This document shows, in pieces, positions 19,192-59,135 of a stretch of DNA of 64,000 nt. Every line of letters begins with the position of its first letter. The stretch's first letter is position 1. The notes under the pieces were generated by a model. That model saw nothing but the letters and a program-made list of their open reading frames with translations. It had not been told where the DNA came from and ran no database searches. This stretch comes from an uncultured Azospirillum sp. (lineage in GTDB: Bacteria > Pseudomonadota > Alphaproteobacteria > RF32 > CAG-239): contig UQAB01000008.1 of NCBI GenBank assembly GCA_900538765.1, positions 481 to 64,480 of the forward strand, written 5' to 3'. Made by a program: the position numbers and the translations under genes.

Positions 19192-19262
19192 GCTTATAAC
19201 AAATTTTGATAAAATGTTTAACTTACTGAAACTAAAAGAAAAATAAGGAAAGCTTGTTCGAA

Positions 19263-33016: not shown

Positions 33017-33180
33017 CTTTAATACCCTCGTCTTCTGTGGATGCACGTTATGACACCGTCATGCTATAATATTTTTTATTTAAAATCACTATATTATTTT
33101 ACAAAAAATACGTCTTTATGTTATTTTAATAAAATAAGGTTATAGTATAACAGAATTATGTGTAATTTAAGGAAGTCAAA

Positions 33181-38881: not shown

Positions 38882-38909
38882 TTTTAACCTTAAAACAAGG
38901 ATGTTCAAC

Positions 38910-39860
38910 ATGAGTATGAACTTTAAATTTTTACTGATAGGGACAAGTTTGTCCTTAATCCCAACTTTAACAAATGCCCAATGTGTTGCGACAACTGATT
39001 GCGCCACTTTGGGATATACCGAAACCTCCTGTCCTGACAGCAAAGGCCTAAAATGCCCATTCGGCAATACCTTTGCCTGTCCGGCAACAGATAAAAGTGT
39101 CTGCGAAAAATATGGCTTCAAATATACCTGTTCCGGTGAAGGTTATGCCGGAGGCGCAGGGCAATCTTGTAATAAACAATATGAAACTTGTTCTTGTGCT
39201 GTCGGTTATGAATGGAAAAACAATAAATGTGAAAAAGAGCCCGGCGCAACTCTTGGACAGTGTACCGGCTATGCCAAAAACTGTAAAATCGGCGATATCT
39301 TAAACAGCGATGGAACCTGTTCTTCTGATAAAGTCAACGGCAAAGCTCCCATTGGTGTCGTGGTTTATATCAGTCAGGATGGTCGTTGCGGACAGGCAAT
39401 GACAGCAAAACCAATTACCAGTACAATATGGAAACCTGAAGAAGTGCAAGCGCCGATGGATGATACAAATGAAAGTGAAGCATTGCAAGATTATGATAGC
39501 TGCGGCAATACAAACATTATCACAAACAGTGGAACGCCTGAAATGTTTCCTGCCGCGTGGGCTGCTAAAACTTATGCCCCTGTTGCCGCGCCGGAAACAA
39601 AAGGAAAATGGTGCTTACCTGCGGCGGGGGTTTTATCTTCAGTTTACTACAAACGCTCAGTCGTTAACAAATCATTCTCAAAAGCAGGAGGTTTGGCAAT
39701 CGTAAATGCTAAAGAAGATCTTTTATCTTCCACTCGTTTTAGTTATGCCGCTATATGGGTATATTGTTCTCTGGATGAGTTTGCCTGCGCTTATGATAAT
39801 GGTCTTAACCCTATGGTTATGAGAGTTGACGGTGCGGTTCGTCCTGTTATTGAATTTTAG
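38910..39860 (+). CDS. Secreted cysteine-rich protein, possibly with a DUF1566-like C-terminal half
   Basis: The signal peptide is FKFLLIGTSLSLIPTLTNAQC. The N-terminal half has about 20 Cys. The C-terminal half contains KGKWCLPAAGVL, reminiscent of the W.LP motif of DUF1566/Lcl-C domains. I chose the ATG at 38910 for its RBS spacing. Confidence 0.5.
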   Translation: MSMNFKFLLIGTSLSLIPTLTNAQCVATTDCATLGYTETSCPDSKGLKCPFGNTFACPATDKSVCEKYGFKYTCSGEGYAGGAGQSCNKQYETCSCAVGYEWKNNKCEKEPGATLGQCTGYAKNCKIGDILNSDGTCSSDKVNGKAPIGVVVYISQDGRCGQAMTAKPITSTIWKPEEVQAPMDDTNESEALQDYDSCGNTNIITNSGTPEMFPAAWAAKTYAPVAAPETKGKWCLPAAGVLSSVYYKRSVVNKSFSKAGGLAIVNAKEDLLSSTRFSYAAIWVYCSLDEFACAYDNGLNPMVMRVDGAVRPVIEF

Positions 39861-40533: not shown

Positions 40534-41466
40534 CTATTGCAATGGCGGAATATTAAGCTGGGCTATTTCACCCGGGCTTATTTTGACATTGGAATAACGC
40601 ATATTTCCGGTTTCAATGACAAATCTTTGCCGTCCGGTAAGCTGGGAGGCTAAATCATAAAAATCCCTTGCATTCAGGTCTTGCCGCTGCGGATTCATAA
40701 TGTAAAGAACACAGCCCTGTGTCTTTTCGGCAATGCCGCACCGCGCGCGTCCTCTAGGCACTTCCGGATTCGCCACAACGCCTTGCAAGCCGTTATTGAC
40801 AATTTCTTGAGTGGAGAAAAATAGTTTAGCCAATGTAAAGCCGATGACAAAGGCCGCAGCAACGGCAATCTGCAAAATCTTTTTTGAAAACATACCGTCT
40901 TGAATCAAAAGACGGGATTCTTCCGCATCGTCATCTAAATCGCTGTCACTGACAAAAGCCGGAGGTTCCTTGTTGACATTTTGTTTAGAGGAAAGCCGGT
41001 CCGGCAAATTCTTCACTTCCGGTTCGTTGTTTTGAACCGGCTCCGGATGTGCTGCCATGTCCGCAATTATATTTTTAATGTCATCCATATCGTCAAAATT
41101 GATGTCTATATCATTTTGAACGGGTTTTGATGACGGCTTTTCTATAGGATTCTGCTGCTTTGTCTGTTGAGATACGGAACGCTGTAGCGCCGGTTGTTGC
41201 GACCGCGGCTGTTGCTGTTGTGGCCGGGAAGCGTTATTGGATGTTGTGTGCGGCATTACCGGCGGCCGCTGAGGTTGCTGAACCTGGCGCGGCGCCTGCT
41301 GAACCGGACGTTGTGAAACCTGAGGCTCTGCCGGATTTTTAGGCATAACCGGGGATAACGGACGCTTAACCAACTTTTTTACCGGCCGTTTGACCTTTTT
41401 AAGTAATGGTTTGCCATTCGGTCCGATTGGCCTCTGCGGAATATTGTTTGAAGTATTGTCAGCCAT
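40534..41466 (-). CDS. Pro/Gln-rich bitopic membrane protein (last gene of the lower operon)
   Basis: The N-terminal roughly 190 aa are Pro/Gln/Lys-rich and lack a signal peptide. One TM segment (ILQIAVAAAFVIGFTLAKLFF) is followed by a roughly 95-aa C-terminal domain. Confidence 0.55.
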   Translation of the reverse strand: MADNTSNNIPQRPIGPNGKPLLKKVKRPVKKLVKRPLSPVMPKNPAEPQVSQRPVQQAPRQVQQPQRPPVMPHTTSNNASRPQQQQPRSQQPALQRSVSQQTKQQNPIEKPSSKPVQNDIDINFDDMDDIKNIIADMAAHPEPVQNNEPEVKNLPDRLSSKQNVNKEPPAFVSDSDLDDDAEESRLLIQDGMFSKKILQIAVAAAFVIGFTLAKLFFSTQEIVNNGLQGVVANPEVPRGRARCGIAEKTQGCVLYIMNPQRQDLNARDFYDLASQLTGRQRFVIETGNMRYSNVKISPGEIAQLNIPPLQ

Positions 41467-41477
41467 TTTTCTGTCCT

Positions 41478-42770
41478 CTATAACTGATTCTGAATATGCT
41501 GAGTTGTTTTAGCTGTACGGATAATTCTTGGAACAACAAACACGATTGTTTCTGATTTAGGTTGTTTGCTGCCGAAAATTTCATTCGGCAAACCGATTAT
41601 CATAAAGTTTTCCCCCAGCTTGCTGCGAACGTCAAATTGTGAAATTTCGCCGTTTGTCGTATCCAAAGAAAAATGGGAAAAAATCCAGTTGTTTTTTTCC
41701 AAAGAAGCTTTGGCGGTAATTGACAGGTCTGCTTCTATAGCTTGCTTACTGCCGCATTTGCCGACGTCAAAACGCGAGAACCACAGGTTGGGTACAACAA
41801 AACGGCCTTCCGAAACCGGAACAATCGTTGCCTGGCTGCCGAGAAAACGCCGCAGGCTTCCGATATTCAAATCGTTTGACGACGTTAATACGCGGCCGAT
41901 AACGCCGGCCTGAGCCGTATTAACCGTGCTGAAATCAAACTCGTCCAGAATAGACTGCCAGTTAATATCCTGATTGATGTTTGTCGGATATATCCGGAAA
42001 ACACTAACGTCATAGGCGATTAATGTCGGATTATCTTTGAAATAATCAATCAAATCCACAATTTTGTTTTTTGTTTCATAATCCGACGTAAAAGTAATGG
42101 AATAATCCCCCCAGTCAGCGCTGATATCCGTAATGCCTGACCCTCTGATAACATCAAGCAGGCCAAGCATAATCGGCCGTGAATGCGGAACATATAATGT
42201 AAAATTCGCCCGGCGGGAAATCCGCATGACTTTTCTGTCGGCGTCATAAGAATAAAAAATCTCAGCCGCATCTGTAATCATTTTGACAACTTCGGAAAAT
42301 TCCCCACGCAGATTTTCGCCTGAAATGCTGGCATATGGCGCATCTCTTGCAATCAGATGAATACCTGCTTCTTTATCAAGCTTCAGCAAGGCTTTTTCCG
42401 CAGGCATGGACTTAAATGAAAAACCGTTCACTTCATAACGCGGTAATATGTCGTTAACGCCGTTGCGGACAAGATTAAAAGCCGTCATATTGTACGGAAC
42501 GGCGGCAATTAATTCCTGCTTGTTCCAGCTGACCCTGCAACGTAACGGCGTTTCCAAATCAAGTTCTCTGGCACCTTTGGTTGTTTTTATGATGTCAGGG
42601 TCATGTTGCATGATAAAATCAATGTCTTCGCTGCCAAAATTTTCGGCTGCCGAAACCCCGGCCTGGTTCGGCAAGGAATCAATCGTGCCGAAATCCGATC
42701 CGCCGCAACTGCCGAGAACAAGCAGAAAACCTGCCGTCAAAAGAGGTGTTAAACGCATAAAAATCTTCAT
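41478..42770 (-). CDS. Secretin-like outer-membrane lipoprotein (degenerate)
   Basis: The lipobox is LVLGSCGG. A beta-rich C-terminal half ends in SETIVFVVPRIIR, like the ...LLIFITPRI.. end of secretins. DVSVFRIYP resembles the start of a secretin core. Confidence 0.4.
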   Translation of the reverse strand: MKIFMRLTPLLTAGFLLVLGSCGGSDFGTIDSLPNQAGVSAAENFGSEDIDFIMQHDPDIIKTTKGARELDLETPLRCRVSWNKQELIAAVPYNMTAFNLVRNGVNDILPRYEVNGFSFKSMPAEKALLKLDKEAGIHLIARDAPYASISGENLRGEFSEVVKMITDAAEIFYSYDADRKVMRISRRANFTLYVPHSRPIMLGLLDVIRGSGITDISADWGDYSITFTSDYETKNKIVDLIDYFKDNPTLIAYDVSVFRIYPTNINQDINWQSILDEFDFSTVNTAQAGVIGRVLTSSNDLNIGSLRRFLGSQATIVPVSEGRFVVPNLWFSRFDVGKCGSKQAIEADLSITAKASLEKNNWIFSHFSLDTTNGEISQFDVRSKLGENFMIIGLPNEIFGSKQPKSETIVFVVPRIIRTAKTTQHIQNQL

Positions 42771-43288
42771 TACGCCTGTTTATCCTTATCTATAAATACC
42801 GGAGCGTCTTGAGATGCGCTCTGCCCGCCGTCAGCCAAAAGTTTATCCATAAGCTGGTCGATGTTCATACCGGCGCCGACTGTCGGGTCATCGGCTTTTG
42901 TCGGAACGGCGCCTAAAGCTTCTTTCATCTTTTGAATTTCGGAAGCATCTTCTTTAATCATATCGGGAGAAGAATTGTTTTGCAACTCTTGCTGATATTC
43001 TTTCAGGCTTTTGTGAAAAGCCGCCATGCCGCCTTTAATTTTTTGCTCGACATAAGGATAAAGCTCGCGGTGCTTCATTATATATTCGCCGACATCGCTG
43101 ATTTCTTCAAGAACGTCTAAAATATAACCATAATACGGATATTCTTCCATGGCAATATTTCCCATACGGACGCAGCGTGCGGCAATACGGGAGATTGTGC
43201 GGTCATAGTAGTCCTTCAAAAGAATAAAATTATTCAGATACCACAGGGATTCTTTGCTGACCGGCGGCAGATTATGATTAGTTTCCAT
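42770..43288 (-). CDS. Hypothetical soluble protein
   Basis: 172 aa with no TM segment. Its stop overlaps the next start by 1 nt. The SD sequence lies in a hairpin (see findings). Confidence 0.5.
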   Translation of the reverse strand: METNHNLPPVSKESLWYLNNFILLKDYYDRTISRIAARCVRMGNIAMEEYPYYGYILDVLEEISDVGEYIMKHRELYPYVEQKIKGGMAAFHKSLKEYQQELQNNSSPDMIKEDASEIQKMKEALGAVPTKADDPTVGAGMNIDQLMDKLLADGGQSASQDAPVFIDKDKQA

Positions 43289-43402
43289 AAAACGGCTCCT
43301 TTACATCTTATCTTAATGTAAAGGAGGCATAAGCGTTTGTAAATTCTTTTGTTTATGCTTTTACACAGTATTTGTAGCGGAGAAAAGCGGAGGCCCGTAT
43401 AT

Positions 43403-45826
43403 TTATGACGGCATGGCAAAGGGATCATCGTCAGCGGCGGTGGATAATCCCGAAATTTTAAATTCAGGCATATCTTCTTTTTGAAGTTTGTTAATACCGC
43501 CGATTTCCGCAAACGGCGCCGCAACATTCTGAGAAGTCGGAGATGCTTCTCTGGCCTTTGCAATGTTGAATTCTTCGTTATTGTTGTCCGCCGGAATTTT
43601 CTGAATCTGTAACGGCTCCGCCCGGACTGAATCCGCTGTTGAAATATCATCATTGCTTTCTGCTTCGCCAGTTGTTGTTTGAGCCGCTTCTTCAGTATTG
43701 GAAACAACCGCGGAAGGGGGAAGTTCCTCTCCGGCCGCGATATCTTCTGCCGGAATATTTTCCTCATAAAAAGTTTCGGAAAAGTCCTGAGATGTTTCAG
43801 GGGCAAAATCCTGGATGGTATCTTCTGCATAAGTGTCAAAAGTGCTTTCTTCAGCATAGCCGCTGTTATCGGCCTGCTGGCTGTCATCTTCGACATATTC
43901 CCATTCCCACTCCTGGCCGTCTTCGGAACTGCCGTCGTCTTCGACATATTCCCACGTCCATTCTTGACCATCGGCAGAAGCCGTTTCATTATAATACTCT
44001 ACTTCATTGGTACTTTCCTGCATATATGTATCAACCGGAATATCCTGCTCCTGAGGGGGATAAGAAGCGAAAGCTGTATTATCGACAGGCATAGGCTGAA
44101 CCGTTTGTGAAGCCGATGCCGGAGTGAAGCCCCAACCGAAATCATCATCCTGTTGATCCTGAATATCATCCGGGATACTCATAATCGGGGATGAAAACAA
44201 AGGATTGGAGGCTTTGGACTGGAACGGTGTTGTGGCCGCCCTCTGAAATCCGCTTGGCATTGGCTGAGACACTGGCTGCATCTGAGAAAAAACAGGATTG
44301 ACCGCGGGCTGTTGCACTTGCTGTTGAGATAAAGATGAAAAAGGTATATCCTGAGGTTGTGATACCTGTTCTGCACTTGGCTGGAGAACGCCGGAATCCT
44401 GTTGCGGTGCTGTTGGCTGGGGCGTTTCCTGCCGGAAAGCATTGTCTTCGCTTTTATTTTTATTTTTCTTCTTTTTTTTCTTTTTCTTTTTGATGGTTTC
44501 TTCTTTTTCTGCCGCAGCTTTCTTTTCATCCCCGTCAATATCGGCAAATAAATCATCGGCAGTCAAAACGCCGTCGTCTTCCGGTTCATTTTCTTCATCG
44601 GTTGGAGCATCTTCTTTGATTTCTTCCAAATCTGCCGGCGCTGCCGCTTGCGGTTGTTCCTCCAAAGGCGCCTCCTCTGATTGAGGCTGTGAAGCCGGTA
44701 TCGGAGCATCCTGCCCCGGCAGCAGAACCGGAGCCGGAACCCCGTTTTCTAAATCGGAGTCAAGGCTTTCGAGGTTAAGGTCGTCATTAATCGTCTTGCA
44801 CCCGGACATCTGGATGCTTTTGGAAACGTCAAGCAACGCTTTTTGCAATTCGGTCTGCATTTCCAGAATTTTCATATTTTCCTGCTGGAAAGTTTGCAGA
44901 ACGTCAATAATCATCTGCGTTGAATTCATATTGCTTTCTTTGAGAACTGTCGCTAAGACATTTTCCAGTTTGTCTGACTGGAAAGAAGACATCTCTTTCA
45001 GCATTTCGGTAGACGGCATAACAGAACCTTTGCCTTCGCTGTCAACAGAAGCCACCGCAGCCATTGACATTTCGACAACTTTTGAATTTGAAGCACTGAG
45101 CATTTCAGCGACTTTTTTCTGAGATTCGCCGATAATCTCCGCCAGTTCCCGATTCCCGGCGTGCTGGGCTTCGGCATTCGTTTTAAGTGCCTGAGTGATA
45201 ATTTGAACCAGATCTTCTTTTAAGGATTCGTCTGCAACGATTTTCAACGGGCCGGATAAAGCAGCGTTGCCTGATCCTATTTTTCGTTCAATTGACTGCT
45301 GGATTTTATTCAGTGTTTCAGCCGGAAGTTTTGATAGGTCAATCCCCTGAGCATCTTTAATTTCTTCAACGTCCCGTTTCAGGTTATTCATTTCCCGACG
45401 CAGTTGAGAGGCGACATTGTCTATTTCCTGCATGTTTGCCGCAGGAGCTGCCTGCGGGCGGATTTGCGACTGTGCTTCCGCTAAGGCACTGGCTAAAATC
45501 TTGGCTTTTGAAATTTCATCGCTGATTTCCGGAGTGTTTGCGACAACAGTGGCCTGTGTCTTTTCCATTCCGGCATTTTGCTCCAGATTGTTGACATATT
45601 CCTGAAGAACGGAACCGCCCGGAAGAGAAGCAAACATCCCTTTGACCGAAGCCGGCTGTTTCAAAAGCAACTCATCAAATTCTTTACGTTTTGCCGCGGT
45701 GAAAATATGCAGCTGCCTGAAAATATTTAAAAAACGCTGTGCCGCAATCACAGGGTCTTCTTCACCGCCGTGTTTGTTAAATATTTGCGTAAATTCCGCG
45801 CCTTTTTCTAAGTCACTTTCAGCCAA
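43403..45826 (-). CDS. Large acidic repeat-containing protein (807 aa), TTG start
   Basis: It has no signal peptide or TM segment. It has coiled-coil-like Ala/Glu/Gln regions, a Lys9 run, and a Gln/Pro-rich and Asp/Glu-rich C-terminal half with the duplicated DGQEW.WEYVEDD. Confidence 0.55.
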   Translation of the reverse strand: MAESDLEKGAEFTQIFNKHGGEEDPVIAAQRFLNIFRQLHIFTAAKRKEFDELLLKQPASVKGMFASLPGGSVLQEYVNNLEQNAGMEKTQATVVANTPEISDEISKAKILASALAEAQSQIRPQAAPAANMQEIDNVASQLRREMNNLKRDVEEIKDAQGIDLSKLPAETLNKIQQSIERKIGSGNAALSGPLKIVADESLKEDLVQIITQALKTNAEAQHAGNRELAEIIGESQKKVAEMLSASNSKVVEMSMAAVASVDSEGKGSVMPSTEMLKEMSSFQSDKLENVLATVLKESNMNSTQMIIDVLQTFQQENMKILEMQTELQKALLDVSKSIQMSGCKTINDDLNLESLDSDLENGVPAPVLLPGQDAPIPASQPQSEEAPLEEQPQAAAPADLEEIKEDAPTDEENEPEDDGVLTADDLFADIDGDEKKAAAEKEETIKKKKKKKKKNKNKSEDNAFRQETPQPTAPQQDSGVLQPSAEQVSQPQDIPFSSLSQQQVQQPAVNPVFSQMQPVSQPMPSGFQRAATTPFQSKASNPLFSSPIMSIPDDIQDQQDDDFGWGFTPASASQTVQPMPVDNTAFASYPPQEQDIPVDTYMQESTNEVEYYNETASADGQEWTWEYVEDDGSSEDGQEWEWEYVEDDSQQADNSGYAEESTFDTYAEDTIQDFAPETSQDFSETFYEENIPAEDIAAGEELPPSAVVSNTEEAAQTTTGEAESNDDISTADSVRAEPLQIQKIPADNNNEEFNIAKAREASPTSQNVAAPFAEIGGINKLQKEDMPEFKISGLSTAADDDPFAMPS

Positions 45827-45940
45827 CTTTTTGCCTGTCTTTTTTACTAATTCCGTGTAACTTTACACCCACATTCACTTCAAGATAGTCTATATTATAA
45901 TTAATGTCGTAAATTTCAGGTTAACAAAATGGCGTATAAT

Positions 45941-45972
45941 AAAAAAAACTCCGTTAGAAACGGAGTTTTTTT
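45941..45972. terminator. Intrinsic terminator after the regulator gene
   Basis: A 7-bp stem ACTCCGT/ACGGAGT is flanked by A7 and T6. Confidence 0.8.
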
Positions 45973-45982
45973 ATTTAAGAAT

Positions 45983-46954
45983 TTACAGATTAATGGCAAC
46001 AATCTTATGAATTTTATTCAAATCGTCATTACCGATTTCTATCCTTTCGTCAGGATTCCATCTTAAGCCGTACAATTTCCCGTCTTCGTCTTCACGAATG
46101 CTGAGTATTTTAGCCTCATTGGGGGCGGAATAATAAACGGCAATGTCGCCGACGCTGACAACATCGCTGGGGTCGGCAAACAAAATAGAACGTGTCGGCA
46201 ACAGGCTGCCCAGTCTTCTGGTGCACAAATTAATGGCGTAAACATCTTTTTTGCTGATGAGCTGCGGCGGGCAATCAACTTTTTTCAATTCGTTTTCCAT
46301 ATCAATGATAATGTCTCCGTCTTTTCCGGCAGTTCCGTATACAGAAACTTTCGGACATTCCTGAGCGGAAACGGTAAAGGAGGAGATAGCGCCGCGCGGC
46401 GTAGAAAGAAGCTTATATTTGGCATCGTTTCTCTGAATGATTTCTTCAAGCATACCTTTATCGTCAAGGCTTTTGATTTCTTCTTTCAAGTCTTCCGGTG
46501 TCATATCCAAGGCTTTGGAGATATTTTTAAATTCCTTGTCGGAAACTTCTCTCTGTCCCATTTCGATACGGTGGTAAACGGACAATGTCATGTCAGAACT
46601 TTCGGCAACTTCAATCAACGTCAGATTCTTTTCGTTGCGGATTTGTCTTAAACCGGCGCCAAGCGTCTTCAAACCGCTTTTTTCGTTGATTTTGTTTCTT
46701 CTTTCCTGTTCTCTGCGCCAGGATTGAACGACCTCGACCTGAGAATTCTGTTCGTTAACAAACAAATCCTGCAACGGACAGTCTAAGAATTCTGCAACAC
46801 GGACCAGCTGTTCCTGATCAACTCTCCGATAACCTTTTTCAATTTTTGAAATTGCGGAAAGGCTGACAGCCAGATGATCTGCCAACTCCTGCATTGAACG
46901 GCCGCGAAGTCTTCTGTACATTCTGATTTGGTTGGGGAAAATAATTTCTTCCAT
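45983..46954 (-). CDS. Transcriptional regulator with two XRE-type HTH domains and an S24 (LexA/CI)-like C-terminal domain
   Basis: HTH 1 reads IRMYRRLRGRSMQELADHLAVSLSAISKIEKG. HTH 2 reads LRQIRNEKNLTLIEVAESSDMTLSVYHRIEMG. The C-terminus LGSLLP...VGDIAVYY...AKILSI follows the G-S-x-x-P ... K layout of S24 peptidases. Confidence 0.65.
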   Translation of the reverse strand: MEEIIFPNQIRMYRRLRGRSMQELADHLAVSLSAISKIEKGYRRVDQEQLVRVAEFLDCPLQDLFVNEQNSQVEVVQSWRREQERRNKINEKSGLKTLGAGLRQIRNEKNLTLIEVAESSDMTLSVYHRIEMGQREVSDKEFKNISKALDMTPEDLKEEIKSLDDKGMLEEIIQRNDAKYKLLSTPRGAISSFTVSAQECPKVSVYGTAGKDGDIIIDMENELKKVDCPPQLISKKDVYAINLCTRRLGSLLPTRSILFADPSDVVSVGDIAVYYSAPNEAKILSIREDEDGKLYGLRWNPDERIEIGNDDLNKIHKIVAINL

Positions 46955-47089
46955 GATGTTTACCTCATTTTATTAAACATAATAGCCTTACTAGAACAGT
47001 AACCAAGCATTATAATAGTCAGCAAACAGCATAAATCAAGAAAATATAGTCTAAAAAAAGACAATTTGTGTACAAATCGGATTCTTTTT

Positions 47090-51085: not shown

Positions 51086-53427
51086 TCTGCCTGTCCGCTG
51101 TTTTCCTGATTATCCTGAGGCTTGTCCTGTTTATCGGCGTCTTTGCCGAATTTCAGCTTTCTGCCGAATTTTTCCATACTGCGACCTGCTTTCTCAATCA
51201 TTTCGCCGCTTTTCTTCATAACTTTTCCAGAAGCTTTAACGGCCTTTCCTGCGGCAACAGTCGCTTTACCGCCGGCCTGTACCGCCGCGCCGCCGGCATA
51301 AACCGCTGCGCCGGCAATCATCATCGGGACACCGATAATGGCGCCAAAACCGGTTGCGCTTAATCCTTTTCCTGCTGTCATGATGCCCTTGCCGCCATGG
51401 GCTATGCCCTGACCGGCCTTGTCAACGCCTTTTCCGGCTTGTTCTACAGCCTTACCGCTCTGTTCAACGGCTTTACCGCTTTGCTTGATGGCTTTACCGC
51501 TTTGTTTAACCGCGGTTCCGGCATTGGGTGATTTATTGTTTTTGCCTTGTTCTTTGTCACTCTTGGTAAATTTGTCTTTAACAAATTTGGCCGCCTTTCC
51601 GACAGTTGCCCCTGCAACCGCGCCAAGAACTTTTCCTGCACCGCCGGTTGCCGCACCGACAGCGGCTTTTCCTGCGCCGACCGTAGCTTTTTTCGCGATA
51701 TCCGTCATTCTGGTCATTTCGCTGTGCATCGGGGAGGCATTAGCCATAAGGCCGCCGCCGAAAAATTTGTTAACATAGTCATCAACGGTCGAGCGCACCA
51801 GTTTGATTGAATATAAATAAGCAAACAGAATAAGGATGAAATAAGGCCCGGTAATGTCAAAAGTATCGGAAATCCACTTGGAGTCTCCTTTCTCAACCCG
51901 TTCAAACAACTCGGGAACATCCCGCAGCGTAACACTGATCATCGCCATGGCATAAGACGTGGTGATTGCTAAAAAGGCAAAAATCGCCGCCGAACTTAAC
52001 ATGGTTTTAATACAGGTTTTTACTTTTCCCGCTGTAATGGAAAAAGGCCACAATGCCATAAGCAGCGGAAAAATCATGATAGCGATGCCGATTTTGAATG
52101 AAATGTCCAGCAGATAATAAGAAACAGCCAACACCAGCATAAATCCGGCAAACCAGATTGCCGCGCCGCAAAGCCATATCCAGACATTAGGAACGATAAT
52201 CTGAAAATCCATAATTGAGTGGTTCACCCAGGCGCCGGCATTGACGGAATGACAGGTGAGAGCATGGCCGATAACCAGATTGGTGGAAACGACCCTGTCC
52301 AGACTTTCATTGAAGCCCATGATTTTATTCAGCATGTCGGCCGAGAGAAGCTCAACCCCGCTGTATGTGTAGTCTGGCGAGGGCGTCATGCTCAGGTGAC
52401 TTTGCGAGTTTGCCAGAATTGCCGTGCCAAAATCAGCGCCGGCGACCAAAATAGGGCTGACAACGTAAATCATAAAAACTTCGATTCCCGATTCGATAAC
52501 CACATAGGCAAACAGTATCTTAAATCCTTGAATCAATAGGGTGTTAACAATGCTGGACGGTTCAAGGCTGGCGACGGAAGAAATTGTCTTGAGCGCCCAG
52601 AATGCAACCCATAAAAGCGTGGCGACCAACAAAACCTGAACGGCTGCGCGTCGGCACAAATCGCTAACTTTCGTGCAGGCGTTAATAAATTTCTCAAGCA
52701 GCGTTTTGACAACAATACAGGAATAACAGGAAGATTGATATTTCTTCTCCATTTCGGCAACTTTGCAGACACTGTTATCGCCCGTTCTTATTGCGACGCC
52801 AACTAAACGGTTGTCTTTTGCATTTTGAAGATTTTTCAGTTGTTCCGCGGCTTCTTTTTCCGTGATAAGGCCATTTTTAAGATCCCTGTTGATTTGATTT
52901 TCAACAGCCGCATATCTGGGGTCTTTAATCTCTATCTCTCCTTTGTCATATTTATCCTTGTCATCTTGTGTTGCCATATTGACTCTTGACGCTAAGATTT
53001 CAAGTTCGGCAGCTTTATTGAAAGAATTGCTCATCTTATTTACAGCATTTTTATATTGCTGTTCATTGAGAAGTCCTTTTTTCTTTCTTGATTTCAATTC
53101 TTTTTCAACCAAAGGTCTGTATTCATACATTGATGTTGCCAAAGTTGAATAAGTCATAATCATTTGAGCAATTTCTTCCGGACTTCCGTCACCTTGCATT
53201 AAGTCAGCCAGATATTGTTTATCATTCTGCACATATTTGTGATAATTTTTTACAGTATATGTACCGTTATCTAATTTCTTAAGATCGTCTGCGGCATAAT
53301 AATCCGGCGGATTGACGGCGGCCTGAACATTTAAAGAAAATAAGCATAACAAGATACTGACAAAGAATGAGAAAATAGTCTTTGTCCTTATTTTGTTTTT
53401 AGCTATGTCCCAAATGTGTTTCATCAT
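51082..53427 (-). CDS. TrbL/VirB6-like polytopic membrane protein (781 aa) with a Gly/Ala/Lys-repeat tail
   Basis: It has a signal peptide, a roughly 230-aa periplasmic coiled region, a TM core with YYLLDISFKIGIAIMIFPLLMALWPFSIT, and a C-terminus with the (KQSGKAV)n heptad repeat. Confidence 0.55.
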   Translation of the reverse strand: MMKHIWDIAKNKIRTKTIFSFFVSILLCLFSLNVQAAVNPPDYYAADDLKKLDNGTYTVKNYHKYVQNDKQYLADLMQGDGSPEEIAQMIMTYSTLATSMYEYRPLVEKELKSRKKKGLLNEQQYKNAVNKMSNSFNKAAELEILASRVNMATQDDKDKYDKGEIEIKDPRYAAVENQINRDLKNGLITEKEAAEQLKNLQNAKDNRLVGVAIRTGDNSVCKVAEMEKKYQSSCYSCIVVKTLLEKFINACTKVSDLCRRAAVQVLLVATLLWVAFWALKTISSVASLEPSSIVNTLLIQGFKILFAYVVIESGIEVFMIYVVSPILVAGADFGTAILANSQSHLSMTPSPDYTYSGVELLSADMLNKIMGFNESLDRVVSTNLVIGHALTCHSVNAGAWVNHSIMDFQIIVPNVWIWLCGAAIWFAGFMLVLAVSYYLLDISFKIGIAIMIFPLLMALWPFSITAGKVKTCIKTMLSSAAIFAFLAITTSYAMAMISVTLRDVPELFERVEKGDSKWISDTFDITGPYFILILFAYLYSIKLVRSTVDDYVNKFFGGGLMANASPMHSEMTRMTDIAKKATVGAGKAAVGAATGGAGKVLGAVAGATVGKAAKFVKDKFTKSDKEQGKNNKSPNAGTAVKQSGKAIKQSGKAVEQSGKAVEQAGKGVDKAGQGIAHGGKGIMTAGKGLSATGFGAIIGVPMMIAGAAVYAGGAAVQAGGKATVAAGKAVKASGKVMKKSGEMIEKAGRSMEKFGRKLKFGKDADKQDKPQDNQENSGQAE
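51427..51510. repeat. Four tandem 21-bp repeats in the coding sequence
   Basis: Units resembling GGCTTTACCGCTTTGCTTGAT occur four times and encode the GKAV(E/K)QS heptads of the 781-aa protein. Confidence 0.8.
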
Positions 53428-54806
53428 TATTTACCGCCGCCCTTAAATTTTTTAGCAACAGTCTGCATAGCTGATTTAGCCTTGCCCTTGCTCCATTTTA
53501 AAAGTTCTTTGGATCCTCCTTTGGCAGCCCCCCAAGCTTTTCCAGCACCGTTCTTAGCCTTATTAAGAACAAAACCGCCGATTCCCAAAGTGAAGAATTT
53601 GAGAACCATAGCGCCGGCCTTGGCGCCTTTGTCTTTGAATGAACCTGAGGAATCGCCGCCGACCAGCGTATTGGTCAAATCCTGGGCAATCTTCATGGTC
53701 GATTGGATTAAAAACGCTAACAGTAACAGGCAAAGCACCGGAATACTGAATTCCTTAAAGTTTTGCCGGAAATCTTCTATATTATCGCCGCTTAATCCCA
53801 AAGCGGGAGAAATCATAATTTCATGCATGGCCAGAAGAGCAACGGCAATCATAATTGCCACAAACATCATATATGCGGCGGAATTTATCATTGTCATAAA
53901 TCCAAAAGTTGCCCAGGAACGGGTTTGTTTGAAAGCATAAGCCAAAATCAGTGCCGGTAAAATTGTCACCACGATAGTGAAACGGAAGAGGGTATCGACC
54001 AGATAAAAAATAAATGCCAGCTTGATAAATGTAAACATGAGAAAAATAATGCAACCGATAACCAGAGCCATAAATCCCGTGTCATGCAATGTTTCAAAAG
54101 CCAGATAAAAGCCGATTCCCAAACGTTCGTTAATTGCGCAGGCGATACACGACATCATATTAATCGGCGCGGCCGGAAATGATGTCAAATTCTCATCTGT
54201 CACCAGGTTTTCCGGAACACAGGCAATCTTTTGTCCGTATTCTATTTTTTCTCCAAGAAATGTAAGCGACAAATCTTCTTGTCCCGTAGCTGCGCTGGCG
54301 GCATTGAGCATTTCGCCGGCAAATTCAAGAAACGTGTAATAGAGCGGAAAAATAATTGTGTTCAACACAAAAGCCAACCCGGCTGTGGAACTGGCCAACA
54401 GGCCGCAGACAAAACAGATAAAGAGCTGCTTGAACACTTCTTTCCACACTTCGGCAATATTTTCTTCCTGTAGAGAACTGACATGGCGCATCAGCCGGAA
54501 AGAAAACCATACGGCAAAAGCAACCATAATAAAAGCCAGAGCGCCGTCAGTCATTTGCTTATAAAGCCCGAGGGAAATAGAACCCATCTGTCGGTACATC
54601 AGTTCCAGAATGCTGCTTTGCCAGCAGTCACGTTGGTCCTTAGCTAGTTGGCTTGAACTTCTGTCCGCGCCGCTCATCGCCGTTTGTTGATTAGAGTTGT
54701 TTGTTCCTTTAACATCAGTACCGCTGCAGGCCGTCAACAGGAAACATACTGAAATGACTAAAATCAGTATTTTGAGAATTCCGACTATGTTTCCCTTTTT
54801 CAACAT
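53427..54806 (-). CDS. TrbL/VirB6-like polytopic lipoprotein (459 aa)
   Basis: It has the lipobox LLTACSG, a TM core with FYLVDTLFRFTIVVTILPALILAYAFKQTRSW, and a Gly/Ala/Lys-rich tail. Confidence 0.55.
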   Translation of the reverse strand: MLKKGNIVGILKILILVISVCFLLTACSGTDVKGTNNSNQQTAMSGADRSSSQLAKDQRDCWQSSILELMYRQMGSISLGLYKQMTDGALAFIMVAFAVWFSFRLMRHVSSLQEENIAEVWKEVFKQLFICFVCGLLASSTAGLAFVLNTIIFPLYYTFLEFAGEMLNAASAATGQEDLSLTFLGEKIEYGQKIACVPENLVTDENLTSFPAAPINMMSCIACAINERLGIGFYLAFETLHDTGFMALVIGCIIFLMFTFIKLAFIFYLVDTLFRFTIVVTILPALILAYAFKQTRSWATFGFMTMINSAAYMMFVAIMIAVALLAMHEIMISPALGLSGDNIEDFRQNFKEFSIPVLCLLLLAFLIQSTMKIAQDLTNTLVGGDSSGSFKDKGAKAGAMVLKFFTLGIGGFVLNKAKNGAGKAWGAAKGGSKELLKWSKGKAKSAMQTVAKKFKGGGK

Positions 54807-54815
54807 CGGTTTTTC

Positions 54816-57584
54816 CTAATTATATCTAGGGTCAACGCTTAACAAAACATTTAGTTTGTCTTTAATTTCGCCGACTCTTGTCGTTGCTGCATTTCTGGTT
54901 GCTTCTTCATTAAAGATTTTTCCGTTTCGGGCAGAAATAGCGCGGCGTTGGTTAACATAAGTGTTGACAGCATCATTATTAACGGTCTGCTGTAATTGTT
55001 GCTCATTTTGTTGCGCCTGCACATAAGCTTTATTGACGGCCTGAACTTTAGCCTCTGCCGCCTGAGCCATTTGTTCAAATCTGGCGGCCTGTGGCGTTCC
55101 CCGGGCGGCAGTCGCCTGTTGACGGGCTGCAGCTGCTTCTGCTTGGGCTTGCTTGGCAGCTTGTTCTGCTTTCAGCGTTTTTTCTTTTGCTTTTTGCAGT
55201 TCCTGAGAATGAGCCGCAAAATCATGAAGATTCCGTTCTGCTTCCCTCATAGCCGCCGTAACCTCCGGCGCTTCGTTCGGATTTATCCGCGGACCGGCAC
55301 TGCCCGGAGAAGCCTGCTGTCCGTTATTTCCGGTTTGCCGATTTTGTCCCTGACCTTGCCCCTGACCTTGATTCTGCCCCTGTCCTTGGCCGTTATTTGA
55401 TTGCTGTTGCTGGTTCTGTGGGTTATCTCCAATCTGTTGATTCTGTTGTTGCTGGTTCTGCCGATTATTGCCGAACTGCTGATTTTGCTGTTGGTTAGCA
55501 CCAGACTGTTGGTTTTGTTGTTGAGCCTGAGAATTTGATTTGGCTGCTTTGCCGCCAAATTTTCCTAATCCCAAAGCTCGGCCGATTCCGCCGGTTACCT
55601 TGTCTTTTCCTTTGTTTAATGCCGCAGTAATGCCGGTACGGCGTCCGACAGCCCCCATAGCTTTGCCGGCAAGGCCGACCACCCCGCCGACTTCGCCTTT
55701 TTTCGTCCCGACAGCCAGACCAGCCGCACCACTGTAAGCCAGAGTACCGAGAGAAGAACCGATTTTGGCATCTCCGCCGCCGCCGGCAAAAGTTGAAGCC
55801 AGAGCCGCCGCCTGCGCGGTTAGCTTGAAACCAAACAAACAGCAGGCCAGCAAAACCAAAAATCCGGAAAAACCAATATCCAGAAGGGCCTGTAAAACAC
55901 GAATGTCATTACCGTCAATAGCTTTTTGCAATGCGCTTCCGCCACCTTTTCCGCCGGTCAAAGACATCAGGATAAGCTGAATATTAACGCTGACAACCAA
56001 GCCCATCATGGCATAAGTAAAGAAAGTGTTCAAAAACATGGTCCAGCCTTGTTTGGTATAGCCACTGGTCATTTTGAACGGCCAACAGGCAATCAAAAAC
56101 GGCATAAGCGCACCGAGTATGCCGACACGGACGGTAGCGTCAATCAAATAGAAAGCAAAGGCTAAAGCAATTAAGAGAGAAAAGCCCCAGATAATCAAAC
56201 CTTGGAAAAACATGCTGAAATCCCAGATAGCATTTTCAATTTTTGTAACCACGAGATTGATAGAGGAAGCACCGGCATTGCGCGCCACGCACATCAAGGT
56301 AGAGCCGATACTCTGGGCTGTAGCAATTTCGGCCTGAACAGAACGGATAAAACAATCGAGTTTGACGTACAGGTAAGGCGGCAGGACTCCATCGTTAATA
56401 TTCATTTTTCCCGCCTGTGTGTTCAGATTAAGCTCATTGGAGCACCATTCGACATAACCGCTGCCGTTTTCAAACAAAACTGCTGAACCAAATTCCATGC
56501 CGGCAGATAAAATCGGACCGACAGCCAGGTTATAAATATATGATGCGTTGCTTAACAGAATATAGGCAAACATAACCTTAAAAGCCTGAATAAAAATTTC
56601 ATTGGTAAATTTGGGCGCATCTTGTTTGGTGAATGCGCTGACATATTTCAAAACCAAAAAGGCGATGTAAATGGCAAAACCAAGTATCATAACATAAGAA
56701 ATAGAGGTTGCCAAAACGGCATACGAATTGGTTGCCATTGTTTGTGCTGCGTTGAAAATAGTCAAAAACATCGGACAAAAGATGCAGCTTTGATTCTCGG
56801 CAAGCTTCGCCGGTAGGGGAATACATCCTTTGGTATTGCCCACAACGGTCTGATATTCGTCGTTTGAACCGAGTCCGACAGCCCCCATTCCTTTTGATAA
56901 ATAAGACTGGTCTTTCTTAATAAAGTAAATCGTTTCGCCTTGCTCTGTTACATATTTATAGACTTTTTGATTTGGAGATATTTCATCATAGGAATTCATC
57001 ATAACCTGTGCGTTGCGCGTATCATCACCGATTGCAATCATTTCTTCTGCAATTTTTGCCAACTGCGTATTTTTTGGATATTTTTCATAAACCATATCAA
57101 GCAGTTTTCTGGCTGTTTCACCTTTTTCTTCTGTAAATGCAGGTTTTATAATGGTATTCCATGAGTCACCTAAATGACTGGTAAAACGATCCCATGTTAT
57201 TTTTACACTGTTAAGAGCAGCATCCCCGGCAGCCGAAAATTCACCGGTAAAAAGATTTTTTAGCGCAGAGGCATTTGAAGAAATCAAATTCTTAGTTGCC
57301 TGAAAGTCATCTCCCAATTCTTGCATGCCTAACGCAGCTACAAATTCTGCTTTTTTTGCCCAGTATTTTTTATCATTCTCTTCATATTTTTTTTGCCACT
57401 TTTCTCTTTCTTTCATTAACTCATCTGCAGAGGCTTCTTCTTGAGCAATAAATCCTTTAATTTCATAAGGGTTGATTGGACCTTTGTTGTTGGTTGTCTG
57501 AGCAGAGGAAAAGCTTGTAAGAAAACAGCCCGCGAGAACCAGAAGCGGGAATAAAATATAATGTATTTTGCTCTTTTTCATCAT
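54816..57584 (-). CDS. TrbL/VirB6-like polytopic protein (922 aa) with a Gln/Asn-rich and coiled-coil C-terminus
   Basis: It has a signal or lipobox sequence LLVLAGC and a roughly 260-aa periplasmic N-domain. The TM core contains CIFCPMFLTIFNAAQ and FYLIDATVRVGILGALMPFLIACWPFKMTSG. The tail is G/A/K-rich, then Q/N-rich, then Ala/Gln coiled coil. Confidence 0.55.
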   Translation of the reverse strand: MMKKSKIHYILFPLLVLAGCFLTSFSSAQTTNNKGPINPYEIKGFIAQEEASADELMKEREKWQKKYEENDKKYWAKKAEFVAALGMQELGDDFQATKNLISSNASALKNLFTGEFSAAGDAALNSVKITWDRFTSHLGDSWNTIIKPAFTEEKGETARKLLDMVYEKYPKNTQLAKIAEEMIAIGDDTRNAQVMMNSYDEISPNQKVYKYVTEQGETIYFIKKDQSYLSKGMGAVGLGSNDEYQTVVGNTKGCIPLPAKLAENQSCIFCPMFLTIFNAAQTMATNSYAVLATSISYVMILGFAIYIAFLVLKYVSAFTKQDAPKFTNEIFIQAFKVMFAYILLSNASYIYNLAVGPILSAGMEFGSAVLFENGSGYVEWCSNELNLNTQAGKMNINDGVLPPYLYVKLDCFIRSVQAEIATAQSIGSTLMCVARNAGASSINLVVTKIENAIWDFSMFFQGLIIWGFSLLIALAFAFYLIDATVRVGILGALMPFLIACWPFKMTSGYTKQGWTMFLNTFFTYAMMGLVVSVNIQLILMSLTGGKGGGSALQKAIDGNDIRVLQALLDIGFSGFLVLLACCLFGFKLTAQAAALASTFAGGGGDAKIGSSLGTLAYSGAAGLAVGTKKGEVGGVVGLAGKAMGAVGRRTGITAALNKGKDKVTGGIGRALGLGKFGGKAAKSNSQAQQQNQQSGANQQQNQQFGNNRQNQQQQNQQIGDNPQNQQQQSNNGQGQGQNQGQGQGQGQNRQTGNNGQQASPGSAGPRINPNEAPEVTAAMREAERNLHDFAAHSQELQKAKEKTLKAEQAAKQAQAEAAAARQQATAARGTPQAARFEQMAQAAEAKVQAVNKAYVQAQQNEQQLQQTVNNDAVNTYVNQRRAISARNGKIFNEEATRNAATTRVGEIKDKLNVLLSVDPRYN
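55316..55540. repeat. Low-complexity CAG/CAA-type (Gln/Asn) and GQ-dipeptide microsatellite-like coding tract
   Basis: It encodes QQQNQQSGANQQQNQQFGNNRQNQQQQNQQ...GQGQGQNQGQGQGQGQ in the 922-aa protein. Confidence 0.75.
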
Positions 57585-57586
57585 GG

Positions 57587-57760
57587 CTATTTTCCTGTCC
57601 AGGGATTCCCTAAAATCTTAAAAGCGATGGCAAAAAGGATAACAATAGTTCCGATAGCCGTCCACAAAACCGTTTTTCCGGAAAAAAGCTCCAAAATGCC
57701 CGATGCGTATATGGCAATTACGATAAAAATAATTGCAAAATTTATAAGGACCGATTTCAT
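57587..57760 (-). CDS. Small two-TM membrane protein (57 aa), first gene of the VirB6-like array
   Basis: I chose the ATG at 57760 (GGAGAA 6 nt upstream). The sequence is MKSVLINFAIIFIVIAIYASGILELFSGKTVLWTAIGTIVILFAIAFKILGNPWTGK, and its stop is 2 nt before the next ATG. It may be a VirB2/VirB3-type analogue, but no motif supports that. Confidence 0.45.
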   Translation of the reverse strand: MKSVLINFAIIFIVIAIYASGILELFSGKTVLWTAIGTIVILFAIAFKILGNPWTGK

Positions 57761-57842
57761 CAAGCTTTCTCCGCACAGTTTTTTACTCTTATATAATACC
57801 ATAAAAAATCTCAAACTTATGTTACAGTTTTTTGATTTTTTA

Positions 57843-58697
57843 TTATTTGAATTTGCCCCTTTTTATAAAATTTAAGCTGGCATTAATGATTCTCTTGTTT
57901 TTAAAGGGACTAAAGCCGTTGTTCTTGATAACAATGGATTCTTTTGCTTTGTTCCAAGCTGCATCTTCAGGCGTGTTAAACCAGGATTTAATACATTTAG
58001 GCAGAAAACCTAAGATTCCCCATTCCCCTTCGCCATGCGTTGAAATAATGCCGATGTCGATTTTGGGATAAATATAAGGCGTGTCGTTGGTTATGACTGG
58101 ATTCGCTTCGCGCAGCATCGGGCCGAAAATCCAGCGGAATAAACGATATTTGCCGAATTTGCGGGCAAAACCATTGCCTTTGAGTGGCGGTGAAATTAAA
58201 ACGGCTTTGTTAATTTTCAAGTTCTTTTTCCAAGGTTCGGAAACATCTTGTTCCAGAAGTTTTTTCAAAAGAAGCCCGCCCATCCCGTTGGTGATAAAAG
58301 AAATTTCCTGCACGTCTTCAAGATGATTAAGAAAAAAGTTTAGCTGTTTCACGTGGGATTCCAAGCTTTTTCTGGTAGACGGATAATTAATGGCCGCAGC
58401 CAGATAGCCTCTTTTCAAGGCTTCCCGCCATAATGGTTTAAAAATGTTTTTTGTTTCGCCAAGGCCATGCAGCATAACAATCATATGCCCCTTTTGCCGA
58501 GCCAGCTGATACATGCTGATATAAGTAACAAAAGCCTGGCGGCATTCTCCGAAACTACCCTCGTAACGCCGGATGTCCCAAGGGTCAAGCAAACGAAATT
58601 CCTGGGTTTTGTAATGTCTTTGGATTCGCCATTTCTGGTAAAAGAAAACATCCTCCCAAAATTGTCCGCCGCCGCATGTAAAAAAATTAAATTTCAT
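57843..58697 (-). CDS. Alpha/beta-hydrolase-fold protein with a degenerate nucleophile elbow
   Basis: MLHGLGETKNIF (an HG oxyanion-type region) is followed by FITNGMGGLL where G-H-S-M-G-G is expected. The nucleophile codon is GGG (Gly) at 58284-58286. Confidence 0.5.
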   Translation of the reverse strand: MKFNFFTCGGGQFWEDVFFYQKWRIQRHYKTQEFRLLDPWDIRRYEGSFGECRQAFVTYISMYQLARQKGHMIVMLHGLGETKNIFKPLWREALKRGYLAAAINYPSTRKSLESHVKQLNFFLNHLEDVQEISFITNGMGGLLLKKLLEQDVSEPWKKNLKINKAVLISPPLKGNGFARKFGKYRLFRWIFGPMLREANPVITNDTPYIYPKIDIGIISTHGEGEWGILGFLPKCIKSWFNTPEDAAWNKAKESIVIKNNGFSPFKNKRIINASLNFIKRGKFK

Positions 58698-58700
58698 GAC

Positions 58701-59135
58701 TTATTTACTCTTTCCTGTAACGTTCATATTGGGAATCGCCGTTAATGTAACGAGTGAAGAATCCGAAGAATCCATTTCAATCAGAATCTGAACGGCACGT
58801 TGTCCGCGAATGTAAGTCATATGGCTGACTCTGGCGCGCACTGTCGCAACTTCAATCCAATTCAGTTTAGGCATTTCAGACATATAGAAGTCAAAAACCT
58901 CGCTGGACGTATACGGTGCTGTAAATACCAGGCTGCCAATCCAATTTTCGCCGCTGCCGAGAGCTTTGGTATCGCTTAAGTCAATATATGCCTGATTCGG
59001 AAAAGGGATATCCGGAAAATTTGCAAATGCAGGCGGTATCGCTGAACCGTCAATTCCTGTTATGGGAGTCTTTTCAGAAGAACAGGCCGCAAGTCCGCAT
59101 AGCAAAAGCATTGTAATTAAACATTTTTTTAACAT
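58701..59135 (-). CDS. Hypothetical lipoprotein (144 aa)
   Basis: It has the lipobox GLAACS and lies 3 nt upstream of the hydrolase-fold gene. Confidence 0.5.
   Translation of the reverse strand: MLKKCLITMLLLCGLAACSSEKTPITGIDGSAIPPAFANFPDIPFPNQAYIDLSDTKALGSGENWIGSLVFTAPYTSSEVFDFYMSEMPKLNWIEVATVRARVSHMTYIRGQRAVQILIEMDSSDSSLVTLTAIPNMNVTGKSK

Follow-up and report, generated by a model that had tools for sequence, protein, structure and literature searches.

What kind of machine is encoded by a run of genes which combines VirB6-like membrane proteins with a secretin-like lipoprotein, and in which no Walker A motif is seen? The question is raised by twelve consecutive minus-strand genes (g01 to g12, numbered in transcription order) at 40534-59135 of a 64,000-nt stretch of DNA from an uncultured Azospirillum sp.; the whole stretch is called the window, and all positions given are those of the window. 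A reading made from the letters of the window (the sequence-only reading) had offered two answers, a dispersed and highly derived type IV secretion system (T4SS) resembling the layout of the rvh system of Rickettsiales, or a distinct, undescribed envelope-spanning apparatus. Comparison with related loci suggests that the block is, on balance, one of two loci of a highly diverged T4SS of the VirB type (P-type, rvh-like), which is chromosomal, vertically inherited and equipped with a secretin module. The VirB6 paralogs and a split virB8-virB11 cluster fit the first of the two answers. The second survives in a weakened form, carried by the secretin module, of which no description was found, and by the failure to find VirB4 or VirD4 in the window and the related loci.

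The twelve open reading frames (ORFs) were confirmed at the coordinates proposed earlier, and all gaps and overlaps between them were reproduced. In the order of transcription, with lengths in amino acids (aa) and transmembrane (TM) segments as predicted, they are as follows.

g01, 58701-59135, minus strand: lipoprotein of 144 aa with lipobox LAAC; it heads the g01-g02-g03 trio
g02, 57843-58697, minus strand: basic protein of 284 aa without signal peptide, lipobox or TM segment
g03, 57587-57760, minus strand: protein of 57 aa with two TM helices (two hydrophobic segments)
g04, 54816-57584, minus strand: first VirB6/TrbL paralog, 922 aa
g05, 53427-54806, minus strand: second VirB6/TrbL paralog, 459 aa
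g06, 51082-53427, minus strand: third VirB6/TrbL paralog, 781 aa
g07, 47090-51085, minus strand: fourth VirB6/TrbL paralog, 1331 aa, with two wall-hydrolase domains
g08, 45983-46954, minus strand: Xre-type regulator of 323 aa with two HTH_3 domains
g09, 43403-45826, minus strand: acidic protein of 807 aa without TM segment
g10, 42770-43288, minus strand: protein of 172 aa without predicted signal peptide or TM segment
g11, 41478-42770, minus strand: lipoprotein secretin of 430 aa with lipobox LGSC
g12, 40534-41466, minus strand: bitopic protein of 310 aa with a Pro/Gln-rich N-terminal half

The tight junctions consist of gaps of 3 nt (58698-58700) and 2 nt (57585-57586), overlaps of 1 nt at 53427 and at 42770, and an overlap of 4 nt (ATGA) at 51082-51085. 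Larger gaps of 135 and 156 nt flank the regulator gene g08, and gaps of 114 and 82 nt are found between g09 and g10 and upstream of g03, respectively. A Walker A motif is present in 0/12 products, in agreement with the earlier statement that no Walker-A NTPase was seen. The 807-aa and 172-aa proteins have neither a predicted signal peptide nor a TM segment, as had been read; the accompanying claim that all other non-regulatory products are targeted to the envelope fails for the 284-aa g02, which is also devoid of such signals. A promoter and terminator scan of the block gave counts modestly over shuffled expectation and did not delimit operons, and the tandem repeats within the block are trivial ones only.

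VirB6 paralogs and a second virB locus

Four TrbL/VirB6-like proteins had been recognized in the sequence-only reading, and the profile check of g04 to g07 upholds this assignment. The Pfam family TrbL/VirB6 (PF04610) matches g07 above its cut-off (8e-8; 32.7 bits against 25.9) and g04 and g05 below it (2.5e-4 and 2.4e-3, respectively); g06 has no direct TrbL/VirB6 match in Pfam. All four are mutually homologous across the membrane core (BLASTP 1e-35 to 1.5e-6), as evident from the pairs g04-g07 (9e-35), g04-g06 (1.5e-29), g06-g07 (5e-16), g05-g07 (8e-11) and g05-g04 (1.3e-9), and it is because of this mutual homology that the call of four VirB6 paralogs holds.

The product of g04 starts with a lipoprotein-type signal (LAGC), followed by a periplasmic N-domain, the TM core and a C-terminal extension which is Gln/Gly-rich and coiled-coil. 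The g05 protein, with lipobox LTAC, is the minimal VirB6 form, and g06 consists of a signal peptide, the TM core and a Gly/Ala/Lys-rich C-terminus. In g07 an M23 peptidase domain (~50390-50731; PF01551, 3e-19) contains the motifs HxxxD (HNGVD) and HxH (HLH), and the M23 peptidase fusion proposed earlier is thereby confirmed. The protein also has a VgrG3-like C-terminal (muramidase-type) domain (~49445-50020; PF21277, 3e-6) and the VirB6 TM core (~48050-49165), after which comes a beta-rich C-terminal extension. Among the related loci and lineages compared with the block, which are labelled by L and P numbers, L172-L177 and L181 (~17400-20969), from abundant species, have an M23-bearing protein of 1035-1076 aa called apart from a TrbL protein of 783-871 aa; as each M23-bearing protein is cut off where its locus ends, these lengths are partial.

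The earlier statement that nothing resembles VirB9, VirB10 or VirB11 is true inside the window, but in conspecific contigs all three are found ~0.8 kb past its left edge. These contigs (L178/L179) are 97-98% nucleotide-identical to window positions 203-10339 and carry a 176-aa gene, virB11, virB10 (1487 aa), a giant gene (1139 aa) and CagX, starting ~0.8 kb to the left of window position 1. The cluster is transcribed toward the window and lies ~41 kb from the block. Its 1487-aa product is 50% identical over ~1400 aa, the TrbI region included, to the VirB10 of a relative. The 322-aa ATPase matches the VirB11 family TIGR02788 over its full length (4e-41, below the curated NCBIfam cut-off), with the P-loop GATSTGKT, and this family is well ahead of TrbB, TadA/CpaF and PilT. 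Clade-wide, the ATPase is 84-100% identical, and the best PDB match of the ortholog in L066 is Brucella VirB11 (2.9e-19). In public annotation the protein is called 'Flp pilus assembly ATPase TadA' in several metagenome-assembled genomes (MAGs; P0125, P0129, P0161 and others) and 'VirB11' in one.

Beside the block, relatives carry VirB8 twice (PF04335; 1.5e-15 and 3e-24), CagX/VirB9 (PF03524; 6e-10) and TrbI/VirB10 (PF03743; 3e-35), the two virB8 genes being upstream of virB9, of which a single copy was seen. VirB10 measures 1487-1827 aa and has a long run of beta-flower/DUF3659/RHS-like repeats before the C-terminal TrbI domain (L066:13075-17787, L154:10408-13848, L178:12906-20790); it is preceded by a second bitopic protein of 1100-1300 aa with the same beta-flower repeats. 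A link of these repeats to secretion systems was not found in the literature. At its C-terminus, VirB9/CagX (L154:8792-10411) continues into a fused peptidoglycan-binding domain of the SPOR type, whose last ~60 residues are near-invariant in the clade. Four conserved co-directional genes of ~430, 222, 482 and 1417 aa (the largest 1262-1485 aa; L154:1-6948, L104:12-6973) stand upstream of virB8 and have no match in Pfam or NCBIfam. The 1417-aa protein has a signal-like segment at its N-terminus and long, charged regions that look helical, but no P-loop. These four genes may code for further parts of the system or for its substrates. Membership of the block in a VirB-derived apparatus is very probable.

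Between this virB11 cluster and the DEAD helicase gene there is a small, strain-variable Cys-rich gene. Window positions 1-228 (plus strand) are the 3' end of a Cys-rich, secreted-looking ORF, which ends in ...CKDNSGTWFGECK before the stop codon; L178/L179 have a different Cys-rich sequence at the same place, with only the last few residues in common.

The secretin g11, its partners and the regulator

The product of g11, read earlier as a secretin-like lipoprotein, is a real but shortened lipoprotein secretin. It comprises N0/N1-like ring domains and a shortened barrel ending ...SETIVFVVPRIIR, and the lipobox Cys22 is invariant. When an AlphaFold2 (AF2) model of g11 (predicted local distance difference test, pLDDT, 70) was searched against PDB with Foldseek, 40 matches were obtained at E <= 0.001, 40/40 of which are secretins, including PilQ (1e-10), BfpB (3e-9, the second match), InvG, GspD and RcpA. 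A search of g11 itself against Pfam and NCBIfam, PF00263 included, gave no match at E up to 0.1; on this check the direct Pfam assignment failed, and homology to PF00263 secretins stands via the family profile, hhalign and Foldseek. The g11 family profile reaches PF00263 proteins at 1e-15 to 1e-8 (hmmsearch), and hhalign aligns the family with canonical lipoprotein secretins at a probability of 99.9 and E 4e-36 over 382 columns. This alignment extends from the lipobox as far as the 'PRxI' motif at the C-terminus and shows deletions within the barrel region.

An exhaustive profile search with g11 returned 232 clusters in all, the distant ones being canonical PF00263 secretins, some of them with a TcpQ domain. 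These canonical relatives are nearest to BfpB (2e-35, as compared to 6.5e-18 for GspD). As judged from sequence comparison, g11 descends from the lipoprotein secretin class of type IVb pili.

The three partners of g11 in the secretin module have no recognizable relatives among known families. The g10 protein (58-100% identical in 80 species loci) is invariably encoded directly upstream of the secretin; it belongs to no Pfam family and has no meaningful PDB profile match. In g09, which contains 150 D+E against 62 K+R, a conserved N-terminal domain of ~130 aa is followed by a coiled-coil and a low-complexity region of variable length, and only these N-terminal ~130 residues are conserved among relatives. 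The length of g09 is 856 versus 1126 aa in contigs with identical secretin, both of them gap-free (L008, L009 ~5800-9230). Nothing meaningful was retrieved for g09 from Pfam or PDB, a profile of its N-terminus included. Since no signal peptide or TM segment is predicted in either protein, g09 and g10 probably serve as accessory proteins in the cytoplasm or as substrates. That many assemblies end right upstream of g10 suggests a hypervariable or repeat-rich g09. A hairpin with a 12-bp stem (43296-43326, minus strand) lies in the gap between g09 and g10, directly upstream of the start codon of g10; it has no good T-tract and may therefore be regulatory rather than a terminator.

The Pro/Gln-rich bitopic protein of the sequence-only reading is g12, in which a single TM segment (~residues 192-214) separates a variable, Pro/Gln-rich N-terminal half from a strongly conserved domain of ~85 aa with two Cys, presumed to be periplasmic. 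The AF2 model of g12 (36-sequence alignment) is of low confidence (pLDDT 60); its best Foldseek match has E 2.9, and the PDB profile search gave 0 matches. A TcpQ-like identity of g12 was rejected, as hhalign against TcpQ domains from secretin-TcpQ fusions returned a probability of 0.2. One g12 homolog (P0467) comes from a MAG assigned to Lactobacillaceae, for which the binning or the label is probably wrong.

The position of g08, between the VirB6 genes and the secretin module, is constant, but its strand differs among arrangements. The regulator had been described as tandem-HTH and S24-like; two stretches of HTH_3 (Pfam, 1e-25) bear out the first half of this description. The S24/LexA-like label of the C-terminal domain was dropped, as neither Pfam nor PDB supports it, and the domain is uncharacterized. 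With an identity of 77-100% (54 species loci), g08 is the most conserved protein of the block; its median of 81% compares with a median of 65% for the secretin and 22-34% for the VirB6 paralogs.

Gene order, chromosomal context and rival readings

Does the secretin module belong to the virB genes, or does it merely lie near them? Conservation of gene order in relatives, which had been proposed as a check, is pronounced: the order VirB6-HTH-g09-g10-g11-g12 is kept in 53 of the 54 species loci with enough upstream sequence, and the arrangement is for this reason not due to chance. The virB11 cluster lies convergent right after g12 in 49/62 species loci with enough downstream sequence, and the g09-g10-g11-g12 unit is never broken up.

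Three arrangements were distinguished. In arrangement A (L170/L171, L180; its start is visible in L116 and L158) the genes virB8-virB9-giant-virB10-virB11-g09-g10-secretin-g12 are co-directional; next come the regulator gene on the opposite strand, a gene for a 66-aa protein and those for the VirB6 paralogs. The lineages P0124 and P0135, with virB9-giant-virB10-virB11-g09-g10-secretin-g12, have gaps of 88/70/9/18 and 105/74/3/11 nt, respectively, so that 88-105 nt separate virB11 from the g09 module on the same strand. Arrangement B, that of the majority, consists of the VirB6 genes, the regulator and g09 to g12, convergent with virB11; L068 is a variant of it with the VirB6 genes inverted. 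Arrangement C is the split layout of the window, in whose lineage ApaG comes after g12. The ~41 kb between virB11 and g12 in this lineage contain genes of a DEAD helicase, PtsP, RodZ, IspG, HisS, PrfA, DnaE, NrdD, Der, BamB, transketolase and ApaG. As virB11 and g12 are adjacent in most relatives, a chromosomal rearrangement must have split the locus in the lineage of the window.

The linkage of the module to the virB genes survives at least three arrangements, which argues for functional coupling, and the constant presence of the most conserved protein, the g08 regulator, at the junction points to the same. From this genomic context, a working role of the secretin module in the VirB-derived apparatus is given slight preference. 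A rather unlikely alternative is that the T4SS is a derived one, with g09 to g12 forming a separate channel, relic or working, of a type IV, Tad or competence pilus or of a T2SS-like (type II secretion system) exporter encoded elsewhere, which stays near the virB genes by inherited synteny. It draws on the descent of g11 from BfpB-like type-IVb-pilus secretins, which are partners of pilus machinery, on the name 'TadA' which some sources give to the VirB11-like ATPase, and on the origin of all relatives from one clade, where conserved order could partly reflect shared descent. Synteny alone would, however, not be expected to outlast the shuffling through three arrangements in which the module is beside virB genes, and the ATPase fits VirB11 full-length, far better than TadA/CpaF or PilT. 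Of the type IVb pilus gene set, a PilB/GspE-type ATPase is absent from the window and from ~180 related loci, and no pilin, platform or prepilin-peptidase domain occurs among the neighbours scanned against Pfam or supplied with precomputed Pfam calls.

Relatives of the block occur in 223 species-level genomes (scan of one genome per species). Among the matches listed, the carriers are all uncultured gut Alphaproteobacteria, such as 'Proteobacteria bacterium CAG:495', 'Azospirillum sp. 51_20' and Candidatus (Ca.) Scatocola, and the MAGs come from humans, deer, chicken and mice. The exact 430-aa g11 recurs, in an unchanged gene order, on many contigs from metagenomes of the human gut, and for the VirB11 of one species 4062 assembly blocks are indexed, the longest contigs reaching 1.85 Mb. 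The flanks of the block are housekeeping genes (ApaG, transketolase, BamB, Der, DnaE, NrdD), an rRNA operon lies directly upstream of g01, and the G+C content of the block is like that of the rest of the window. Owing to these housekeeping flanks, the uniform composition and the clade-wide presence, the locus is a vertically inherited chromosomal one and not an island.

The same observations bear on the possibility that the block is an ordinary or degraded integrated conjugative element, for which the virB-type genes and a bifunctional wall hydrolase, typical of conjugation systems, would speak. Type IVb pilus secretins also accompany some conjugative plasmids and integrative conjugative elements, such as R64 and PAPI-1. 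An adjacent canonical virB/trb conjugation operon with a relaxase had been named earlier as the finding that would make this an ordinary conjugative element; the virB genes found are non-canonical, and no relaxase or integrase domain was detected among the genes scanned in the window, the flanks and the relatives, nor a coupling protein among those of the window and flanks. With rRNA operon and housekeeping genes as flanks, a composition like that of the rest of the window and a vertical-looking divergence over 223 species-level genomes of one clade, a conjugative element is highly improbable.

Amid the housekeeping genes of the window, the 661-aa product of a plus-strand ORF at 16714-18699 contains a He_PIG putative Ig domain and is otherwise unannotated. 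Further window ORFs without a family are those at 14914-15804, 31856-33046, 36097-36597 and 38901-39860.

In the trio g01-g03 at the head of the block, no Pfam or NCBIfam family was found for g01 or g02, nor any PDB match for g02. The sequence-only reading had given the 284-aa g02 an alpha/beta-hydrolase fold; the motifs MLHGLG and then, at the GxSxG position, TNGMGG are seen, and with motif inspection as the sole basis, g02 may be a degenerate alpha/beta-hydrolase, a fold on which Pfam, NCBIfam and PDB are silent. The ATG start of g03 is preceded by GGAG, and the mechanical ORF extends to a TTG at 57814. Matching of g03 to TrbC/VirB2 is weak (E 0.012; 0.097 for the 57-aa form). A VirB2 pilin identity of g03 was therefore discarded as unsupported, the TrbC match not being reproduced by the orthologs in L080 and L170. 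An identity as VirB3 is likewise unsupported: the VirB3 motif is '(GAT)L(ST)RP' (PMC2653234), and g03 does not contain it. In L080 (12798-14273), g01 (65% identity), g02 (56% identity) and a 58-aa 2-TM protein form a unit downstream of g12 on the opposite strand; the trio therefore moves together yet stays beside the system.

Several points weigh against a T4SS with a secretin module. VirB4 is regarded as universal to T4SSs, and Walker A scans, applied to every ORF of the window and of ~180 related loci covering a conserved neighbourhood of ~50 kb, found neither VirB4 nor VirD4. The matches of VirB8 to VirB11 are all below the NCBIfam equivalog cut-offs; with all VirB matches far below curated cut-offs, function may have drifted. 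The evidence that ties the secretin to the T4SS is genomic context, and secretins otherwise serve the T2SS, the type III secretion system, filamentous phage and the type IV and Tad pili, and are not known from VirB systems. In the species of the window, 41 kb lie between the secretin module and virB8-11, and the regulator gene parts the module from the VirB6 genes; both facts also favour the reading of g09 to g12 as a separate channel. Lastly, g01, g02, g09, g10 and g12 have no recognizable fold or family, and the 2-TM protein g03 can be assigned to neither VirB2 nor VirB3.

The missing VirB4 and VirD4 are also the chief argument for a new envelope-spanning apparatus, not a T4SS in the strict sense, which would re-use VirB6, VirB8 to VirB11 and a secretin and run without these two proteins. 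The scores of the VirB components far below family cut-offs agree with it, as do such odd extras as the secretin, the giant beta-flower repeat proteins, the VirB9-SPOR fusion and the four conserved genes upstream of virB8. No VirB4-less system built on VirB6, VirB8, VirB9, VirB10 and VirB11 is known, which counts against such an apparatus. The search for VirB4 and VirD4 took in the window and the ~180 loci, and in Rickettsiales copies of virB4 lie apart from the remaining vir genes (PMC2653234), so that its absence from this neighbourhood is weak evidence. A new apparatus is regarded as improbable.

Proposed mechanism and comparison with known systems

In the favoured reading as a VirB-type T4SS, the four expanded VirB6 proteins would make the inner-membrane channel and, together with VirB8, VirB10 and VirB11, form an inner-membrane and periplasmic translocon. 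The M23 and muramidase-like domains on g07, along with SPOR on VirB9, might handle the wall and stand in for VirB1. At the outer membrane, the lipid-anchored g11 ring would join or replace the VirB9/VirB10 cap, with g12 tethering the ring to the inner membrane. It is tentatively suggested that the secretin ring is a structural outer-membrane part of the VirB-type machine, a T4SS/secretin hybrid which possibly functions without neighbouring VirB4/VirD4. In such a hybrid, the g12-tethered secretin might provide or widen the conduit for the giant VirB10, the repeat proteins or substrates, a proposal that carries somewhat less than even weight. Because the context is chromosomal, clade-wide and relaxase-free, the likely function would be contact-dependent interaction, with effector proteins passed to the host or to neighbouring cells, and not conjugation. 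The gene identities (VirB6, M23, HTH, secretin, VirB8, VirB9, VirB10 and VirB11) and the conservation of their linkage are established by the comparisons made; the physical incorporation of the secretin in the T4SS, the substrate and the source of energy beyond VirB11 are inferred.

Type IVb pilus secretins (BfpB, TcpC and PilN of R64) are self-lipidated like g11, whose canonical relatives fit BfpB best and in some cases carry TcpQ. In contrast to them, g11 has internal deletions in its barrel region and lies below Pfam detection, and no counterpart was detected for its partners g09, g10 and g12.

As for wall hydrolysis, CwlT is a bifunctional wall hydrolase of conjugation and T4SS machines, and the peptidase and muramidase-like domains of g07 are analogous to it; as with hydrolases of the VirB1/CwlT type, a dedicated peptidoglycan hydrolase is coded inside the secretion cluster. 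The difference from VirB1 is that g07 carries M23 and VgrG3-C-like domains, not a lytic transglycosylase, and that these are fused to a VirB6 membrane domain.

The VirB7 of the Xanthomonas T4SS (X-T4SS) and the DotD of Legionella have a secretin-type N0 domain and form a peripheral ring of the outer-membrane core (PMC6536674). They share with g11 the coding, along with T4SS genes, of a lipoprotein with a secretin-type N-terminal ring-building domain. They differ from it in having a single N0 and no pore, whereas g11 aligns full length to secretins, the shortened barrel included; the g11 ring would thus enlarge the role which such N0 domains play in Xanthomonas VirB7 and Legionella DotD. No description of a secretin within a virB cluster or of a T4SS with a secretin was found in the literature, nor any functional study or description of a secretion system for this clade. 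Secretins and VirB-type T4SSs are treated as separate, and the known overlap so far is the single N0 domain of these two proteins. If true, the hybrid would bridge the two machine families and represent a new architectural class of T4SS in abundant gut Alphaproteobacteria. With a whole secretin encoded among virB genes, a hybrid complex at the outer membrane is suggested, and the 'unexplored evolutionary relationship' noted in the T4SS literature (PMC6536674) gains a concrete example. The carriers are common yet unstudied, and clade-wide contact-dependent secretion would be a first strong clue to the interactions of these small-genome bacteria with host or neighbour cells.

By shared features, the closest known system is the rvh T4SS of Rickettsiales. 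Its hallmarks are multicopy expanded VirB6, duplicated VirB8, VirB9 and VirB4, and no VirB5 (PMC11077975); the VirB6a-e proteins of Rickettsia measure 668-1154 aa and VirB10 481 aa (PMC2653234, PMC11077975). The present system shares the tandem expanded VirB6 paralogs (here four, of 459-1331 aa), a duplicated VirB8 in relatives, the run virB8-virB9-virB10-virB11, a chromosomal and vertically inherited location and, in the species of the window, split loci; no VirB1 or VirB5 was seen in the loci examined, although the four conserved genes upstream of virB8 are without a family. The likeness to rvh drawn in the sequence-only reading stands for the expanded VirB6 and the split loci; of the genes duplicated in rvh, VirB8 was seen twice in relatives and VirB9 once, and VirB4 was not found in the loci. 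Each of the three differences pointed out at the same time was confirmed: no virB3-virB4 pair adjoins the VirB6 genes, an M23 peptidase is fused to one of these, and a secretin is present. Beyond these, virD4 does not follow virB11, VirB9 is SPOR-fused, VirB10 is enlarged to 1487-1827 aa by beta-flower repeats and accompanied by a further giant repeat protein, muramidase as well as M23 domains are fused to VirB6, and the secretin module is inside the cluster. The hosts differ as well, being extracellular-looking gut bacteria outside Rickettsiales. Such rvh-like features as tandem expanded VirB6, duplicated VirB8 and split loci thus reach beyond Rickettsiales, and their presence here bears on the origin of rvh and on whether it is older than intracellular life.

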